Origin: an uncultured delta proteobacterium
GTDB taxonomy: Bacteria > Desulfobacterota > Desulfobacteria > Desulfobacterales > JAFDCJ01
Assembly (NCBI GenBank): GCA_963769935.1
Contig: CAVYNY010000039.1
Location: forward strand, 1 to 64,000
Length of the DNA: 64,000 nucleotides
Direction of reading: 5' to 3'
A program made the position numbers and the translations under genes. The notes under the pieces are model-generated. The model saw only the letters and a program-made list of their open reading frames with translations, had not been told where the DNA came from and ran no database searches. Shown one piece after another: positions 3,723 through 21,216 of the stretch; position 1 is the first letter of the stretch; every line of letters begins with the position of its first letter.

Positions 3723-4637
3723 TCAAGATGTCCAATTGACCAGTTTCTGCTTGGTTCTATCGTAGGCTTGTTTAACGAGCTTTTCCCCAGATGTTTCTTT
3801 CCTCAAACCGTTCCCATTATTGAAAATCTTTTTCTGGATGTGAAGATCTTCAGCGCACTCCTTAATCACGGGGGATTCTATCTTTTTTAATTCTTTTGAA
3901 TAACCTATCATCAAAGCATGGTCACAAATCGTATTAATAACCCTCGGTATGCCGCCTGAATATTTAAAAATTTTGCCAAGGGCACCTGAGCTGAATAAAT
4001 CCTTTTCCGTTCCGGCGATTTTAAGCCGATGTTTTATGTATTCATTAGTTTCGACTTTGGTTAATGATCGGAGATGGCATACTATACGATCTTTCTGCAT
4101 ATTGCCATTTGGTTTTATCTCTTTTACTAACTCAATTAATGGATTTTGACCGACCAAAACAATATTTATAAGTTGCTCACTATCCCTTTTGATTTTTGCC
4201 ATGAGATCCAAATCATTAAGCAGGCTCTTTTTTAACCGGTGCGCTTCGTCAATGATAATGAGCATCCTTTTTTTGGTTCGGGAATACTCTCCATCTATAT
4301 ACCAAAAAAATGATCTCTTATCTTCAAAGTTATTTGGTAGTTTAAAGGAATCTGCAACGAAGAGCAAAAAATCCTTACTATCAATATCTGAATCCTCTAT
4401 CGTTACAATTTTGAATTTATCATTGAGAAGCACTGCAAGACATTTAATAAGTAAGGTTTTGCCTACGCCGACATCACCTGTTAACAGCGTGATGCCTTCC
4501 CCTTTGTCGATTCGGAACTTTAAAACCGCAATTGCTTCTGATTGCCCTTCACCAGACCAAAAATATTTTGGGCTGACAGTATCCTTAAAAGGCTGCTCTT
4601 TCAAACTGTAATGTGGAAGGTACAACATATTAATCAA
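3723..4637 (-). CDS. ExeA/GspA-family AAA ATPase
   Basis: Walker A LTGDVGVGKT, Walker B LIIIDEAH, and VLVGQ and SGGIPRVINTICDHAL motifs. Confidence 0.88.
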   Translation of the reverse strand: MINMLYLPHYSLKEQPFKDTVSPKYFWSGEGQSEAIAVLKFRIDKGEGITLLTGDVGVGKTLLIKCLAVLLNDKFKIVTIEDSDIDSKDFLLFVADSFKLPNNFEDKRSFFWYIDGEYSRTKKRMLIIIDEAHRLKKSLLNDLDLMAKIKRDSEQLINIVLVGQNPLIELVKEIKPNGNMQKDRIVCHLRSLTKVETNEYIKHRLKIAGTEKDLFSSGALGKIFKYSGGIPRVINTICDHALMIGYSKELKKIESPVIKECAEDLHIQKKIFNNGNGLRKETSGEKLVKQAYDRTKQKLVNWTS

Positions 4638-5750
4638 ATGATTCCTCTCTTGAAAAATCGATCCATCGGAATATCAGATCTTTAAACGATGCTATTTATC
4701 GTTATCGGCAACTTTGTTAAAATTCTAAATTGCCACGCCCTTTTTGATGTCGAGATGGTTTAAACCCAAAAAGTAGTTGTAGCCGATGAATTACAGCGGA
4801 ACAGACTTTGATCGATATTTGATCGGGATTTTCCAGTTCGACGCCCAAGAATTGTTTTAAATGGGAAAGATTTTCGAGCGGCAAACGTTATGAGACAAAG
4901 TTTGACAATCATAAATTCAGCATCGGATCACATTGTGGAAATCCTGGTTAAATTAAGAACATACGTTCCACGGGGGAGTGATGGAAAGCCAAGTGATAAA
5001 AGCGCTATGGTATCTTTCGGAATGTTTGAAAAAATTTGGGCGATCCGCTCATATAGCAGACCGCCCGTTAGAGATTGGGAGAAATATTATGAGTCACATC
5101 CTGCTTTGGATGCTTAATAATCATTTTATCATAACCAATTTCCGTGTCAAATTTTCGTTCATCTAGGACACAGAACATGTTTAGAGAAAGTATTCAGTTT
5201 TCCATCGGTATTTCATACATATTTTTCAGTTTTAAAAATCATGGGCGTTAATATACTTCGAGACGCCAGGCTCCCTCTTAGACCGACTTAAGCTGGTCTC
5301 GGATATAGGTCCCGACCAAATTCAATCCAGGGTGGTTATCAACGCACCTATACCGACGATTTTGATTTTGGGAAAAAATCGGGATTTAGTTTTTCGAACT
5401 TGAACATATCAATAAATAAATCCTTCTCTATTTTTGCCTGAAAATGTCGCTTTAAATAAAGTTTCCCCAAAAAAAAACCGATATATATTGCATATTCAGT
5501 TTCATCTTGTCATCGGTATGGCAAACAGCTTTCAACAATAGGCGAATTATGGAATTATCAGAAGAAAACGGAAGTGGTTGCTGCTTGCGTGAGCAACAAA
5601 ATGGATAAAGCTGTAGAAGGCTATTACTTGCCCCCTGGTGAACTCTGGCGTCAGTCAATTGCGGTATCGAAAAAAGGGGGTCACCCATTAAAGGGCTTGT
5701 CAAGAGAAAAAACACCCCCTTGATCAAAAAAAATCAGTTTTTGATTGACA

Positions 5751-5861
5751 TTGATGGATTCCTAAAAAGCCCGTGCTCCTGGGTTAGCTTTTGAACGCAG
5801 GCGATGGTTTGTGCTGCTGATGGTCTTAAGATAAAGATCAGGCTTTTTAGGAATCCATCAA
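5751..5861. mobile_element. 111-bp MITE/REP-like element with perfect 21-bp terminal inverted repeats, nested in the IS110 end
   Basis: TTGATGGATTCCTAAAAAGCC (5751-5771) and GGCTTTTTAGGAATCCATCAA (5841-5861). Confidence 0.8.
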
Positions 5862-6051
5862 GTTTATAGCGCTCCTCAGCCCAGTGTCGCCTTTTCTCCT
5901 TTTCGCGCCCGCTATTTCTTTCTTATTGGCTTACGGTTAGTATTTTCTGATCCGCATCAGTCACCCATCAGGCTCAAGGCATTTGTGTTTTAAGCTCAAG
6001 GCTTGAAAACACCGCCCCTGGTCCGCTTGGGACCCCAGAAATTCTTCGGTT

Positions 6052-6408
6052 CCATACCGTGTTCAATTGGATGTGTTACAAATCTTGTGGTTATTAGCCA
6101 ACCCCTTATGGACTCACGGCATAGGCGAATCGAGATCTAAAGCGATCGCTGTCTGGTTATTATTGGCGAGTGCAGCAGCTGCCAATCACATCTAATGGTT
6201 TAGTGCCAACCCCTATACCGGCTCACTGCCGCACTCCAACTCTTATCGCATACGCACCTGCCTTTTTAGTCGCTCAAATATTGGTGTCTTTTAAGGCCGA
6301 TCGATGTATCATCGGCAATCAACTTTGATCGATTAGCTGGGTGCGGCAGCTGCCAATCAAAGCTGGTGGTTGAATACCAACCCCTTATCCGGTTGGCTGC
6401 CGCACCCA
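6052..6408 (-). ncRNA. Putative bridge/seek RNA region with three tandem target-binding loops
   Basis: Three stem-closed units share the layout [8-nt guide]-NNTGGT-[6 nt]-CCAACCCCT (at 6078-6106, 6186-6214 and 6357-6385). The unit nearest the transposase matches the insertion site. Confidence 0.78.
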
Positions 6409-6414
6409 AACCGA

Positions 6415-7431
6415 TTAACTAAATAGCTTGTCCTCATCGAAGGCAACCTGATCGCGCATGATGTAGTAAGAGGCCCGAGACAGCTTGTTGCTCAATGCCT
6501 TGATTGCTACCACATTCTTGCTTCTCGCCTTTTTGCTCTGATAAAAACTGTGTGCCTTGGGACAATATCTTTTGGCAAAGTTGGCCGCCTCCACATAGGC
6601 CCAGGCCAGGTACTTGTTGCCATTTTTCTTGTTGTTCTCACCTTTTTTCTTGCCATTGGATATTCTCTTACTTTGCACACATCGACAGTAGGAAGAATAG
6701 TCACCAACTGTAGCAAAACGTCCAATATCCCCGACTTCCAGCATGATGGTCAGCGCTAAAATCTTGCCTATCCCCGGAATCGTAAGCAACTTTGCAAATT
6801 CCTTGCGCAGCTTGGCCTGTGACATGACACGCTTTTCAATGCCTCTAATAATGTGCTTCAAAAATTCAATCGTCGCCCAACTGTTGGTGGCCATCAATAC
6901 TAAATCCGGACAATCGAACAGATCTGCAACATCTATGGCGCTCAGTTTCTTGATTTCATTGTTGGATATCTTAAAACCCAGATTTCTGCTGACCATACTC
7001 TGCAGACTCAAGATCTGCGCCGTTCGCTGTCGCACAAATAAAAGCCTGCGGCGTAACAAATCCCTTACCGCTCGATTCTCCTTGGGGTAGATGTATCCTT
7101 CAGCCAGCAGGTTCAAGCGGTACATGTGCGCCAACCAAAATGCATCCCAGGGATCATCGGTATGCTTCAGTCCCTCGTATTGTTTGATTGCCGAGGGATT
7201 AGCCAAATGAACCTCGTAGCCATTGTCCTGCAGGCCGTCGACCATCCAATACCAATTGAACGTGGATTCGATTACCACCGCCTTAAGGTTTTCCTTAAAC
7301 GGTTCCAGCGCCTTCAAGACTTCCTCCAGCCGGTTGCAATGCCGCTTGCCATAAAGCCTCTTATCGTTGCCGTCGATGATTCCAATAAAATTATTACTTG
7401 AATGCAAATCAATTCCAGCGTATGTTTCCAT
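6415..7431 (-). CDS. IS110-family transposase/recombinase
   Basis: N-terminal GIDLH...IEST...HTDDPWDA (DEDD RuvC-like) and C-terminal LLTIPGIG...GDIGRF...ISNG...GNKYL (Transposase_20-like). Confidence 0.96.
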   Translation of the reverse strand: METYAGIDLHSSNNFIGIIDGNDKRLYGKRHCNRLEEVLKALEPFKENLKAVVIESTFNWYWMVDGLQDNGYEVHLANPSAIKQYEGLKHTDDPWDAFWLAHMYRLNLLAEGYIYPKENRAVRDLLRRRLLFVRQRTAQILSLQSMVSRNLGFKISNNEIKKLSAIDVADLFDCPDLVLMATNSWATIEFLKHIIRGIEKRVMSQAKLRKEFAKLLTIPGIGKILALTIMLEVGDIGRFATVGDYSSYCRCVQSKRISNGKKKGENNKKNGNKYLAWAYVEAANFAKRYCPKAHSFYQSKKARSKNVVAIKALSNKLSRASYYIMRDQVAFDEDKLFS

Positions 7432-7432
7432 G

Positions 7433-7518
7433 GGACACCTCCTAAATCCTATAAAATTAATGTTAGACCCTTGTCTACTGGTTCCATAGCATATTTTGCT
7501 ATGGATAGGGAGGTGTCC
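7433..7518 (-). promoter_or_regulatory. Anti-Shine-Dalgarno hairpin over the transposase RBS
   Basis: GGACACCTCC (7433-7442, the SD on the minus strand) is a perfect 10-bp inverted repeat with GGAGGTGTCC (7509-7518). Confidence 0.65.
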
Positions 7519-7786
7519 TTTCTCAAGCTCGGCAGGCTGTAGTGAGATTTATCGCCAGCGGTCCGTAAGAAAATCTCACGCTTGACGAGCAATAACAGCT
7601 GAATGCAGGAAAAAAAGCAGTATCTATGATTTCCTGCCCTGTTGCTCTTTATATGTATATCAAAGCTTGAATAGTGAATAAGGACTCGCTTCCTTACCTG
7701 AATTTTATGAAATATTCGTTACGTTGTTGGCTGGCTTAACTTTCCAGCTTAGCCGCACTTATCCCTTAAATCGTCATCACGGAGAT

Positions 7787-8188
7787 TTATCGCAATTTAA
7801 ATCGGCCCTGCAGCAGAGGTCTGATACGAGAAATCTTTTCGAAATCTTTGTCACGATGTAAGAGGAAGGCACTATTTTCCATCGCAATCTGCGCGATACA
7901 GCAATCCACGGGGCTGTTGACCGTGACTCCCTTGCGCCTCAGTTCAAAATATATTCCGGCAGCCTCGGGCCATGTATCCTGTGATGCTTCCAGATAGTAT
8001 TGAGTCGAAAGGTATTTTTCCAGCAGCCCCCATTCTTTTTCATTAGCCGCGCCTTGCAGAAGCTCAAGCTGCTGAAATCGGCTGATTGCATAATTTTCCA
8101 CACCAATGGCTTTTTGAAAGGCTTTGACAAAATTGCCGGTTTTGTCTCTGAATATTTCTATCCAAACCGATGTGTCGACCAGGATCAT
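7787..8188 (-). CDS. vapC: VapC PIN-domain toxin
   Basis: MILVDTSVWI...ELLQG...VDCCIAQIA...LLHRDKDF PIN motifs. Confidence 0.93.
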   Translation of the reverse strand: MILVDTSVWIEIFRDKTGNFVKAFQKAIGVENYAISRFQQLELLQGAANEKEWGLLEKYLSTQYYLEASQDTWPEAAGIYFELRRKGVTVNSPVDCCIAQIAMENSAFLLHRDKDFEKISRIRPLLQGRFKLR

Positions 8189-8388
8189 CCCCTTAGCTTC
8201 CTCAGTTTTTTATGGTCGAAATTTTTATGAAACCCGACAGCACCTGCAAGTTCTGTGAGATCCTTGCGCTTTTTCAGCCGAATAAATTCAGTTAAAGCCT
8301 CATGAATGAGATCCTTCTTCGTTTTCGCGTTGCTGACCAAAAAGGCCTCATCCAGTAATTTGTCATCGATTACAATGTTGGTTCGCAT
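8185..8388 (-). CDS. vapB: VapB-family antitoxin
   Basis: MRTNIVIDDKLLDEAF...TKKDLIHEAL; 4-nt overlap with vapC. Confidence 0.92.
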   Translation of the reverse strand: MRTNIVIDDKLLDEAFLVSNAKTKKDLIHEALTEFIRLKKRKDLTELAGAVGFHKNFDHKKLRKLRG

Positions 8389-8621
8389 AATAGACTCCCT
8401 TAACGTACCTCATAGTTGCGTTTGGGTGTGTTTAACACTTATCATACACATTGCATACACAAAGTCAAGAAGAGGATAAAAGGGACAGGTACTTTATGCT
8501 CGACAAAAAAAATCCTATGCTATGAGGTAGTCATGGATTGGACTTCGACACTCCACTTCTCAATTTGAGAAATTTAGTTTTATTTTTGATAAGATATATC
8601 CACAAAAGGGGAATTCGAATC

Positions 8622-8924
8622 GTGACATTGATTAGGTCGAACGTAAAAGGTTATCCGGGAAAGTATATAAATCTTGACATTGATGATCCGGATCTTGACT
8701 TTTCAACGGCAAAGAATATTGCAAAACAAAAGGCAACAGAGATGGAAAATGATCCGATGATGCTATCCTGGTATAATGGCAAAACCGGTGAATCGTATCC
8801 GAACCTCGAATGCGGACCCGGTGATAAACCGGCCTGGATAGCATATGCCGAATCAAGAGGCGGCGACATCACCATTGATATCAATGACGGTCAATACGTT
8901 TTTATTTATCTCTCATTTGAATAA
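8622..8924 (+). CDS. AF1514-family protein
   Basis: DPMMLSWYNG...ECGPGDKPAWIAYAESRGGDITIDINDGQYVFIY; GTG start chosen by RBS. Confidence 0.75.
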   Translation: MTLIRSNVKGYPGKYINLDIDDPDLDFSTAKNIAKQKATEMENDPMMLSWYNGKTGESYPNLECGPGDKPAWIAYAESRGGDITIDINDGQYVFIYLSFE

Positions 8925-9696: not shown

Positions 9697-9813
9697 GAGG
9701 CTCTCACTGAATTTTTCAATTTGGCTGATAGTCTTGAAAGCAACTGCATTTCTCGTTTCTGATATTCCATCGCAGATGATGTGAATAGTGACGGAATCGC
9801 TCCAGAATTGCAA

Positions 9814-9847
9814 GAAAAAAGGGGCTCAAAGCTTGAATAGTCGATAA
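9814..9847 (+). repeat. Empty copy of the IS110 target repeat
   Basis: GAAAAAAGGGGCTCAAAGCTTGAATAGTCGATAA is 31/34 identical to the reconstructed IS110 empty site. Confidence 0.88.
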
Positions 9848-10094
9848 CGGCTTGTTTCCTTACGTGGATTTTCTTAGATGTTGAGGACGTTGTTGACTGG
9901 GTTGACTTAACGCCTTCACTTTGCTCAACATTTAAATCTGCGGCGACACGCCTTGATGATCGACAGATGCCCAACTCAGGCTATGATCAGGCAGCCTGAA
10001 GCGGCCTGATTTTTTCAATCTCCTGTTTGTTCTCTATCTTAGCCGTCCGGAGATCCACCGCGCGTTGTAAAAATTGGGGTGAAATATTGATTAT

Positions 10095-19607: not shown

Positions 19608-21216
19608 ATGAACGTCCGAAACAACATTTATTTAGCTCTGACCAGCGGACTGCTCCTGGGGCTGCCCTGGTCCGTTTCAGCTTCGTTTTTTTTCGTTTTT
19701 TTTGCCTGGATGCCCCTTTTGCTGCTGGAAGAGGAGGTTCGGCATCACGCCAACCCCTATGCCATATTCAATTATGCCTTTGTCAGTTTTTTGCTGTGGA
19801 ATATCATCGGCAGCTGGTGGATTGCCCGGGCCCAATTTGTGGGAGCCCTCTTCATCATTCTCGCAAATTCACTGCTGCAGGCCCTGGTTTTCTGGCTGGC
19901 AAGCCGTATCCGGACCATCCTGAATATTCCCCTGTTGCTTCCTTTTCTGCTCCTTTGGATGGGCTTTGAGCATTTTCATCTATCCTGGGACCTGGCCTGG
20001 CCCTGGTTCAATCTGGGCAACGCACTGGCCACAGCGCCTGAACTCATCCAATGGTACGAGTTTACCGGCGTCCGCGGCGGAACGCTCTGGATAATCCTGG
20101 CCAATTTTGCGCTCTTGCGGGTGTATCATACATATCGCAAAAAAGGCCCGGGTTCCATCGCTCCGGTTTGGCGCAGCAACCCTGATGCTCTTTCTCGTCC
20201 CCATCTGTGTATCCTATCTTCTTTTGCACAATTTTAGAGAGGGAGGTGAAACCGTCAGTATAGCTCTGATTCAGCCCAACCTGGATCCGTACACGGAAAA
20301 ATTTGACCCCCAAAATTATGATCGACACATGCAGGCATTTTTCAGGACGGCGAATGCTGTTGTCGATGACAAAACCCAGTATCTGATCGGCCCGGAAACC
20401 CTAATTGTCGAACAGATTGACGAGAGAGACCCTGCCGCATCAATCTATTACCGGGATTTGCTGAAATTCCGGGAAAAATATCCCAAACTGAATATTCTCC
20501 TCGGCGTAGACAGCTACCGGAAGCTCGGCCAAGGAGACATTCCTCCGGGCAGTCGCTACAATCGCGAAAAAAATTTTTACTACGAGGCTTTTAATACAGC
20601 GCTTTTTATACCGGCCGGCTTTCCAGCTGCACCCCAGTTTTACCACAAAACCAAGTTGGTACCCCTGTTCGAGCGCATGCCCTTTGTGCAATATCTGCAC
20701 TTTTTGGGGAAATACGCCCTCGAGCTTGGCGGATACACGGGCACTTACAGCCTTCGTCCGGCGAGCCCTGCTTTTGTATTGCCGGATGCTTCGATCACCA
20801 TACTGCCGATTGTCTGCTTTGAATCCATTTTCGGCCCCTACTGCTCCCGGAACCTGCCAAAGGAAAAAGGCTTTATCTGTATGATTACCAACGACGGATG
20901 GTGGAAAAATACGCCCGGCTATCTGTACCATTTCAATTTCAGTCCGGTGCGCGCCATTGAAAACCGGCGCGATTTTGTTCGCGCAGCCAATACAGGAATT
21001 TCTGCACTGATTGATGCCACAGGCATGGTAATCGCGCAGACGCCCTGGTGGCAGAAAGCGACCCTTCAAGGGAGGGTTCATCTTCACCGGGGCCAAACTT
21101 TCTTTGCGCGACATGGTGATTATCTGGGCCGGTATTCTTTGGTGTTCGGGGGCTTGCTGATTGTGTACGCAGGGTATCGCAAGCTGAAAAAGTCACGCAT
21201 CCAGGGGCATCGGTAA
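19608..21216 (+). CDS. lnt: Apolipoprotein N-acyltransferase; apparent +1 frameshift at TTT 20167-20169
   Basis: WPWFNLGN and QWYEFTG in the first ORF; IQPN, GPET, YHKTKLVP, IVCFES, ITNDGWW and RAANTGIS in the second. Confidence 0.88.

Follow-up and report, generated by a model that had tools for sequence, protein, structure and literature searches.

The window analysed here, a 64,000-nucleotide (nt) stretch of DNA from an uncultured delta proteobacterium of the Desulfobacterales (JAFDCJ01; assembly GCA_963769935.1, contig CAVYNY010000039.1, positions 1 to 64,000 of the forward strand), carries an IS1111-group insertion sequence of ~1.98 kb on its minus strand (5681–7659), in which three stem-closed units, A, B and C, lie downstream of the transposase gene. 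Units A and B have the same scaffold and different guides, and this A+B architecture is, to judge from the sequences of related elements, a conserved state. Both units are probably working target loops of an RNA-guided recombinase, and the second appears to be used in relatives, since several insertion flanks there match the second unit better than the first. A first-pass annotation of the DNA had proposed three differently programmed loops. That proposal stands for A and B, which show clade-wide retention, equal conservation, compensatory stem changes and matching flanks in relatives, but not for C, which has a constant 5′ loop, a mismatch in the core and a mean identity of 0.84 among two-unit elements.

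The element, its transposase and its target site

The transposase gene (6415–7431, minus strand) encodes a 338-amino acid (aa) protein with Pfam, NCBIfam and PDB matches to IS110-family RNA-guided DEDD recombinases. Membership of this family was assessed by the presence of both characteristic domains in one protein of ~300–450 aa, and the N-terminal DEDD/RuvC-like and C-terminal Transposase_20 domains indeed occur together here (PF01548 at residues 5–147, E 5.9e-14; PF02371 at residues 214–298, E 2.1e-14). The NCBIfam model NF033542, "IS110 family RNA-guided transposase", scored 183 bits against a cut-off of 140, and the IS621 transposase structure (PDB 8wt6) gave a weak match to the C-terminal domain (E 2.1e-7). 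The best 120 relatives listed (75–90% identity) are nearly all 338 aa long and are encoded mostly on ~2-kb contigs. For the IS1111 group we looked for a long non-coding region downstream of the gene, subterminal inverted repeats of 7–17 bp set back from the tips, a transposase of 330–350 aa and relatedness of that transposase to the IS1111 protein over its full length. The non-coding DNA measures 731–734 nt downstream of the gene (5681/5684–6414, depending on a trinucleotide TCA shared with the target) versus 228 nt upstream (7432–7659), the subterminal repeats are present and the protein length fits; the plasmid-borne copies of the ISEc11 family, the only named IS1111-family proteins compared, align only over residues 175–334, at 25.6% identity and 47% of the query. 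Three of the four features checked are thus present, in agreement with published descriptions of the group (PMC11187229 and PMC11208160), and on this sequence basis the element is an IS110-family member of the IS1111 group. The earlier assignment to IS110, with a guide RNA region downstream of the gene, was upheld and narrowed to IS1111.

The ends of the element could be read from a host repeat. The 21-mer TCAAAGCTTGAATAGTGAATA occurs three times in the window, where 0 occurrences are expected. Two copies are uninterrupted (empty) target sites, at 253–284 and 9812–9846 (21-mer starts 264 and 9826, with GGG or GGGGC directly before), and the third is split by the element at 5683|7660, element sequence preceding 7660. 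Because empty target copies exist and the repeat resumes at 7660, the ends are fixed at 5684–7659 plus one shared TCA, giving an insertion sequence of ~1979 bp with one copy of the shared TCA/TGA trinucleotide (5681–7659; body 5684–7659). The plus-strand target half to the left of the element is aaaaaaGGGGGTCA (5670–5683; right target TGA|CCCCCTTTTTT in the transposase sense), and that to the right is TCAAAGCTTGAATAGTGAATA (7660–7680; left target ...TTCAAGCTT|TGA). Both empty sites deviate in the CCCC part (plus strand GGGTCA and GGGGCTCA), which may be why they stay unoccupied. The repeat is longer than the 21-mer: the copies at 7660–7742 and 9826–9908 are 77% identical over 83 nt (further copy at 264–284). 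An open reading frame (ORF) at 8538–8924 resembles, when read by eye, coding sequence ending near 150–250, so that the repeat may follow paralogous genes.

Two A-type units and their guides

Unit A (6334–6412, minus strand), the first A-type unit and a seekRNA-like target loop, starts 3 nt past the stop codon and is closed by the perfect 13-bp stem that the first-pass annotation had described (6338–6350/6396–6408); its 5′ loop reads AUAA+GGGG and its 3′ loop CCAGCUU+UGA. Unit B (6163–6241, minus strand), the second A-type unit and putative second target loop, is 77% identical to A over 71 nt and carries UAUA+GGGG and UUAGAUG+UGA in the 5′ and 3′ loops. The third paralogous loop, unit C (6052–6125, minus strand), combines an outer stem of its own (CCUAUGCCGUG/CACGGUAUGG) with the shared inner hairpin (GGUU..AACC), and its 3′ loop, which begins ACAAGAUUUGU, is longer than those of A and B. 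All three units were found where the annotation had placed them, with the plus-strand scaffold TGGTNNNNNNCCAACCCCT exact at 6088–6106, 6196–6214 and 6367–6385; elsewhere in the 64 kb this scaffold recurs only with 2 mismatches (5 matches in total at ≤2 mismatches, 1.37 expected).

Folding agreed with the minus-strand RNA that had been proposed. The predicted energies on the minus and plus strands were −33.7 and −23.2 kcal/mol for B and −19.1 and −15.6 kcal/mol for C, and when the whole region (736 nt) was folded, A and B each formed their own closed domain. The z-scores relative to shuffled sequences were −4.59 for A and −3.25 for B; at −0.92, C folded no better than shuffles. A covariance model (R1) built from the A-type units of relatives, a check that the annotation had suggested, recovered A at 88.9 bits (E 1.8e-21) and B at 83.8 bits (E 4.1e-20), matched only the core of C (19.5 bits) and found nothing else in the window above 17 bits. 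Rfam gave 0 matches at the gathering score in the window, and at E values up to 10 only chance-level matches to unrelated families within 5600–6450.

Related elements were collected by a transposase scan with one genome per species, which yielded 76 loci (designated by L numbers) at 55–90% identity over the best matching segment and at most 79% over the full length. They come mostly from Desulfobacterales-like metagenome-assembled genomes (MAGs), with some from Scalindua and others, and the window's own genome is not among them; the 68 loci with at least 330 nt downstream of the gene were assessable. The relatives share one order of parts: stop codon, one or two A-type units, one C-type unit, a module containing GAUGGGUGACUG and the right end. 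The right end reads ...TTGACA..GCCCTTTAATGGG(T/C)GA; the motif GAC..GCCCTTTAATGGG(T/C)GA is present in 42 of the 76 loci and is followed in most by CCCC or a near variant. The left-end motif is TA(A/T)TCATATAAAGGGC, preceded by NNNNNTGA. Left flanks end NNNNN-TGA, and most right flanks start with CCCC or a near variant. Two full A-type units are present in 17 of the 68 loci (13 genomes), one in 42 and none in 9, the last being deleted or interrupted copies. A weak homologous unit (25.9 bits) was also found in a Paraburkholderia plasmid relative with 53.5% aa identity.

In an alignment of 57 distinct A-type units, invariant scaffold blocks (GAACCGG, GGGGUUGG, AACCA and UGAUUGG) surround two variable loops. 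Pairing is seen in 86% of cells; the closing stem varies while its pairing is kept, 11 of the 13 outer-stem pairs change on both sides, and double-sided changes number 91 cells, compared with 21.9 in shuffles (0/500 reach this). The short second helix consists mostly of G-U pairs, which are possible only on the transposase strand and therefore fix the strand of the RNA. These data also bear on the idea that the units are no RNA genes but host palindromic repeats, of the kind targeted by the element itself, that were captured by it or adjoin it. Palindromic repeats are frequent insertion sites of IS1111-group elements, and the units are rich in palindromes, but R1 finds no other match in the window, which argues that they are not a host repeat, and no further copy of a unit exists in the 64 kb. 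Moreover, 59 of the 68 assessable loci, which belong to a wide range of hosts, have the units after the stop codon and before the right end; that the units are part of the element is shown by the empty target sites; and the strand-specific G-U pairing points to RNA. A host-repeat origin is therefore scarcely credible.

In IS1111 seekRNAs, which begin directly behind the stop codon and of which an 82-nt form suffices, the segment matching the top strand precedes the one matching the bottom strand, opposite to the order in IS110-type RNAs (PMC11187229). Unit A likewise follows the stop codon closely and is encoded on the strand of the gene, and its top-strand match is 5′ to its bottom-strand match and abuts it: the AAGGGG of the 5′ loop is complementary to top-strand sequence on the right of the core, and AGCUUUGA is identical to the left target together with the core. 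Its 3′ guide AGCUU+UGA is identical to the left flank AGCTT+TGA (5/5), and its 5′ guide pairs at 6/8 right-flank positions. The target-loop geometry claimed for A thus agrees with the element's own flanks, in the order of the IS1111 seekRNAs and not in that of the IS621 prototype, which had been assumed and which is the reverse. Guide positions also change with the target among relatives, a natural reprogramming, and at the level of sequence unit A has the characters of an IS1111-type seekRNA. Across relatives, the 5-mer before UGA in the 3′ loop is identical to the 5-mer before TGA of the left flank in 19 of 42 insertions (any A-type guide of the same element), compared with 5.0 when flanks are shuffled (0/2000 shuffles reach this), although such shuffle tests overstate significance because the related sequences are not independent. 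For the right guide, consisting of the four variable bases of the 5′ loop plus GGGG, the mean agreement with the right flank CCCC+NNNN was 5.53/8, compared with 5.17 for shuffled flanks (19/2000 reach this); examples are the guide AGGG with flank CCCT in L015 and CGGG with CCCG in L070.

The second A-type unit is retained and conserved. On a tree of 37 distinct transposases, the two-unit state needs 2 changes and occupies essentially one clade, which includes the window's element and contains single-unit exceptions. L020 and L035, omitted from the tree because of frame breaks, have one chimeric unit each, whose 5′ half comes from a first unit and whose 3′ half comes from a second, and whose stems are weaker (79.6 and 73.6 bits), which indicates that units are lost by recombination between them. 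The mean identity among 11 distinct two-unit elements (55 pairs) was 0.76 for the 3′ end of the transposase gene, 0.75 for the first unit, 0.50 for the spacer, 0.74 for the second unit and 0.84 for C. When only second units were considered (14 distinct sequences), pairing was kept in 90.3% of cells, and double-sided changes were seen at 10 of 22 pairs, compared with 4.2 in shuffles (0/500 reach this). On these alignments, the second unit is under constraint. Reading of the alignment, in place of a tally, showed that the first and second units of 14 pairs (13 distinct relatives and the window) differ in their guide positions, and the scaffold columns of the same pairs are invariant or nearly so.

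Insertion flanks bear on the use of the second unit. Among 11 readable insertions of two-unit elements, the left flank is matched best by the first unit in four (this window, L010, L049 and L061), by the second in four (L013 and L015 at 5/5, where the first scores 4/5 and 3/5, respectively; L011 and L012 at 4/5 versus 2/5) and by C in one (L014); of the remaining two, L007 is tied and L053 matches poorly. Right flanks favour the second unit in seven elements (L011, L015, L018, L031, L036, L063 and L070) and the first in two; in L070, the unusual second-unit guide CUAGCGGG meets the unusual right flank CCCGCTAC at 7/8 positions, compared with 4/8 for the first unit. L004 has no units, but the site that it occupies is identical to the guide in the second unit of L017, an intact copy from the same genome. 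The predicted target of unit B, in the transposase sense, is AGATGTGA|CCCCTATA; its left guide AGAUG-UGA corresponds to the left flank of four relatives (L015, L030, L038 and L057). The flanks of this copy do not match B (3/5 left, 5/8 right). A multi-guide array would consist of units with the same scaffold and different guides, each kept by selection and each used; for A and B we observed a shared scaffold, differing guides, conservation and covariation, and flanks in relatives that match the second unit.

Alternatively, A might be the only guide and B a redundant copy, with neutral guide differences, whose retention serves some other purpose, namely RNA dosage, processing or stability, or the binding of a second transposase dimer. 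This would suit the A-type site of the present copy, the absence of a B target from the window, the loss of units seen in the L020 and L035 chimeras and the abundance of single-unit relatives (42/68), which appear to be mobile, with several copies per genome (e.g. L039–L043 and L032/33/62). It accounts poorly for a second unit that is as conserved as the first when the spacer is not, for stems kept by compensatory changes, for guides that differ within the 14 pairs on a near-invariant scaffold, and for the flanks of L015, L013 and L070 (right), which match the second unit and not the first. We consider it improbable that B is redundant.

Several loci show further variation in the units. L011 and L012, from the MAG of L010 and L049, show two additional bases, CA, separating the right end from the flank CCC(C); their left flank fits the second unit and their right flank, CCCTTGT, fits the 5′ guide of the first, raising the possibility of mixed use of guide halves from two units. 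Four loci at separate sites in one MAG (L003, L004, L005 and L067) lack the same stretch, which extends from midway in the first unit up to the module that follows unit C, and in three of them the transposase frame is also interrupted by stop codons; all four resemble non-autonomous copies that the intact L017 of the same genome has mobilised in trans. In the Scalindua clade (L039–L044 and L074), a degenerate first unit (26–30 bits) lies ~8–90 nt past the stop codon, with its closing stem kept and its guide scaffold lost, and is followed by a full unit (72–75 bits) at offset ~112; the degenerate unit may be a decayed member of an older two-unit state.

Unit C, donor recognition and other features of the element

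In an alignment of 37 C-type units, the outer stem spans 10 bp; double-sided changes affect 6 of these 10 pairs, and G-U pairs are frequent on this strand. A fuzzy match to the 5′ stem of C was found in 54–56 of the 68 assessable loci, single-unit elements included, and among two-unit elements C is the best-conserved non-coding piece. Its 5′ loop is near-constant (..AAGGGG) and bears no relation to the right flanks (4.67/8 versus 4.73 shuffled; 1483/2000 reach this). Its 3′ loop resembles the clade consensus of the left target, and at the last (third) core position it fails to match the A of the core in 17 of 24 cases; the window is one of these, the C guide ending UGU (plus strand ACAAATCT), a base that the first-pass annotation had silently replaced when it predicted a C target.

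If A, B and C were all independently programmed target loops, the element would have three insertion specificities. C indeed has the inner hairpin and loop layout of A and B. Over left-flank positions −5 to −1, agreement with its 3′ loop is seen in 15–22 of 24 cases (17–24 with wobble), an exact match occurs in 6 of 24, compared with 1.9 for shuffled flanks (9/2000 reach this), and 7 of 24 C units end in UGA, as full target loops do. Within the clade, changes in C follow the flank and give exact left-guide matches in L014 (AGAUC/AGATC), L038 (AGAUG/AGATG) and L057, where both loops change. Independent programming is nevertheless hard to reconcile with a 5′ loop unrelated to the right flanks, with the mismatched core base, and with a sequence that is the most conserved segment in two-unit elements and a guide near the clade consensus, which is the opposite of what independent programming would produce. 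Nor is the predicted C target enriched in the window (10 matches versus 7.2 expected), contrary to the earlier expectation for both B and C targets; the one near match to the predicted B/C targets, at 20299–20310, lies in unrelated sequence. Three independently programmed loops are thus unlikely, and on these alignments C is a distinct, older paralog and not an independently programmed third target loop.

C might instead be the donor-binding loop of a bridge RNA in the IS621 sense, reading the joined ends of the element, with A (and B) as target loops. To its credit, this view explains why C is constant across relatives, as donor ends are, and why it follows the target loop at a fixed ~25–33 nt; A plus C together have about the size of the "long seekRNA" of 145–170 nt (PMC11187229), and the donor-binding nucleotides of IS1111 orthologues often lie in multi-loop structures (Durrant et al., PMC11208160). 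We scanned the whole non-coding region of 23 representatives against both strands of the end-to-end junction for 9-nt pairing. None of A, B and C paired consistently with the junction, so that no loop with both sides complementary to the joined ends, the mark of an IS621-type bridge RNA, was found. The only junction pairing at a consistent position, in 18 of the 23 representatives, was that of GAUGGGUGA, a left-donor-like segment downstream of C and outside the units, which argues that C is no donor loop in the geometry used by A. The 3′ loop of C, moreover, resembles the left target and not the right end, and its 5′ loop, (U/C)(G/A)UAAGGGG, which can wobble-pair with the subterminal repeat TATAAAGGG in 4 of 23 representatives, stays constant while the subterminal repeats change (L010, L045, L037 and L029, by reading). 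We therefore doubt that C binds the donor.

Three further leads were tried and set aside. The 3′ loop of C does not read across the left junction (left target, core and left end), as matches after the core were at background except for a trivial A; the pairing of its 5′ loop with the subterminal repeats reached the threshold only in the 4 of 23 representatives, showed no co-change by eye and stays a weak lead; and the likeness of plus-strand 5996–6007 (TCAAGGCTTGAA) to the target was taken as coincidental, as relatives have an ordinary hairpin there that is unrelated to their own targets.

A conserved module at 5940–6047 (minus strand) with the near-invariant GAUGGGUGACUG (plus strand 5958–5969) is a candidate donor (right-end) guide. 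GAUGGGUGACUG has the same sense as the right end AATGGGTGA and is found within 3 substitutions in most loci, the distant Scalindua copies included. The one junction pairing that the scan located consistently, in 18 of the 23 representatives, falls in this motif. The subterminal inverted repeats lie 8 nt from the tips on the minus strand, the right one at 5689–5696 (sense GCCCTTTA) and its left partner at 7644–7651 (sense TAAAGAGC). They are 7/8 complementary in the window element and usually 8/8 in relatives, with paired changes between both ends, for example in L010 (TAAAGGTC/GACCTTTA) and L045 (TAAAGAGC/GCTCTTTA). Recognition of the ends most likely involves the downstream GAUGGGUGACUG segment together with these repeats. 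In L027 and L052, the last 19 nt of the right end are tandemly duplicated (..GCCCTTTAATGGGTGA + C.CGCCCTTTAATGGG(T/C)GA, then CCCC), which recalls the repeat units that keep left-donor matches in the expanded IS110 loci reported in a preprint (10.64898/2026.08.14.744561).

A TTGACA hexamer at the right end (5698–5703, minus strand; read from the sequence) would, in the circularised element, lie 17 nt upstream of the left-tip TATACA (7654–7659), which has TG just before it. Together they form a possible junction promoter in the circle, of the kind described for these families (PMC11187229); in the linear element, neither a sigma-70-like promoter on the minus strand nor a terminator-like site was found. 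The non-coding region also contains a hairpin with 21-bp perfect arms and a 69-nt loop (5751–5861, minus strand), a subclade-specific insert that is shared with L036, where the arms show a compensatory G>A/C>T change, and not with L014 or L002; it may have arisen as a small element inserted here, or form an additional RNA domain. Directly beside the left end of the element, Pfam identified a VapB antitoxin (8185–8388) and a PIN-domain VapC (7787–8188) on the minus strand, and a 304-aa AAA_22-type ATPase ORF (3723–4637, minus strand) lies ~1 kb from the right end.

Proposed mechanism and relation to known systems

We propose that, once excised as a circle, the element is presumably transcribed across the transposase gene and on into the 733 nt of non-coding DNA downstream of it, a region that would encode two complete, separately folding target loops of the seekRNA type, A and B, with the same protein-binding scaffold and different guides. 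After processing, each unit would load onto the transposase. The 5′ loop of each (NNNN-GGGG, running into UUG) would pair with the top strand, that is, with core TGA, CCCC and NNNN right of the insertion point, and the 3′ loop (N5-UGA) with the bottom strand of the left target plus core. Unit A would have directed this copy into the host repeat (...AAGCTT|TGA|CCCCC...), and unit B would be set for AGATG|TGA|CCCCTATA, a target type used by relatives, giving the same transposase a second insertion specificity. Unit C, with its consensus-like left guide, mismatched last core base and constant 5′ loop, is probably the constant second part of a long RNA, and its most likely role is auxiliary or architectural, not that of a further programmed target loop; it may also act as a generalist left-target guide through U-G wobble.

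On balance we favour A and B both being working target loops, although several observations weigh against this model. The covariation of guides with right flanks is weak, and the shuffle tests are subject to the dependence among relatives noted above. Targets in the family differ at only 2–3 positions, and with G-U wobble several flanks are compatible with either unit. For this genome, a single copy of the element can be seen, at an A-type site, and the predicted unit B target GGGGTCACATCT shows no enrichment in the window (2 matches at ≤2 mismatches versus 4.4 expected, none close). Guides may also act in trans between the copies of one genome, so that a flank match to the second unit could stem from another copy. 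With regard to the rest of the model, no right-donor guide was found at any consistent position in the junction scan of the 23 representatives, and the modest tracking of left flanks by unit C, exact in three relatives, suggests that C may be more than architectural.

A broader version of the model, which we hold more tentatively and at somewhat less than even confidence, is that the clade carries a heritable array of two full, independently programmed loops and a generalist third whose U-rich left guide recognises several variants of the target through wobble pairing, each loading onto the same transposase to give several specificities per element, a natural multiplexing. Such an array would evolve by unit duplication and by unequal recombination that swaps left and right guide halves, as exemplified by L020 and L035.

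The closest known systems are the IS1111 seekRNAs of ISEc11, ISPa11 and ISKpn4 (Siddiquee et al. 2024, PMC11187229). As in those elements, the presumed RNA lies directly downstream of the stop codon on the same strand, consists of a stem-closed ~80-nt unit, and has a top-strand match 5′ of the bottom-strand match, the two meeting at the insertion point; subterminal inverted repeats, a ~340-aa transposase and insertion in a specific repeat are also shared. A longer seekRNA form exists as well, also in ISEc11 (PMC11187229). The present element differs in that the unit occurs twice with different guides and is followed by a third paralog. It also differs from ISEc11 in its transposase (25.6% identity over 47% of the query), and the A-type unit model found no match in the ISEc11 non-coding region.

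With the IS621/IS110 bridge RNA (Durrant et al. 2024, PMC11208160; Hiraizumi et al. 2024, PMC11208158), the element has in common an RNA-guided DEDD recombinase and guides on both sides of an internal loop that read both DNA strands around a short core. It differs in carrying the RNA in the right end and not the left, in the reversed order of the guides, and in that the repeated loops are target-type paralogs, none of them complementary to the donor, with the donor-like match in a separate downstream segment. Duplicated non-coding modules beside an IS110 transposase gene have been described in expanded IS110 loci (Hu et al., bioRxiv 10.64898/2026.08.14.744561), including one locus with several predicted donor-binding loops. 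In that preprint, the arrays consist of units that are at least 95% identical, reflecting recent duplications, and concern donor ends and partial circles, whereas the units here are 77% identical, differ in their target guides and are kept across a clade with transposases ~70–80% identical. According to another preprint (Sun et al., bioRxiv 10.1101/2025.10.25.684509), a lone target loop, the target-binding loop (TBL)-only RNA of CazIS110-1, is a natural RNA species that supports part of the reaction, which makes independently acting target-loop units plausible; in contrast to the present case, CazIS110-1 is an IS110-group element whose only target loop comes from one bridge RNA.

The element resembles guide arrays such as CRISPR and TIGR in one respect, the repetition of constant scaffolds with variable guides for one effector. 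It does not belong to either: it has only two (three) units, it acquires no spacers, its units are entire structured loops, and its effector is a recombinase. IS110/IS1111 recombinases are described in a review (PMC13604230) as one protein with one programmable RNA. In the literature searched, supplements and figures being outside the search, we came across no account of target loops with different programming arranged in a natural array. Relative to the descriptions found, a retained pair of differently set target loops is new.

If the proposed reading is correct, a target loop can work as an independent, stackable module. This would suggest how elements move between variants of a host repeat while the old target is kept, and would offer a template for steering one recombinase to several sites. 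The ~60 related elements with known flanks also form a compact comparative set for the guide rules of this little-studied IS1111 lineage, one that bears on the unexplained second half of the "long seekRNA" as well.

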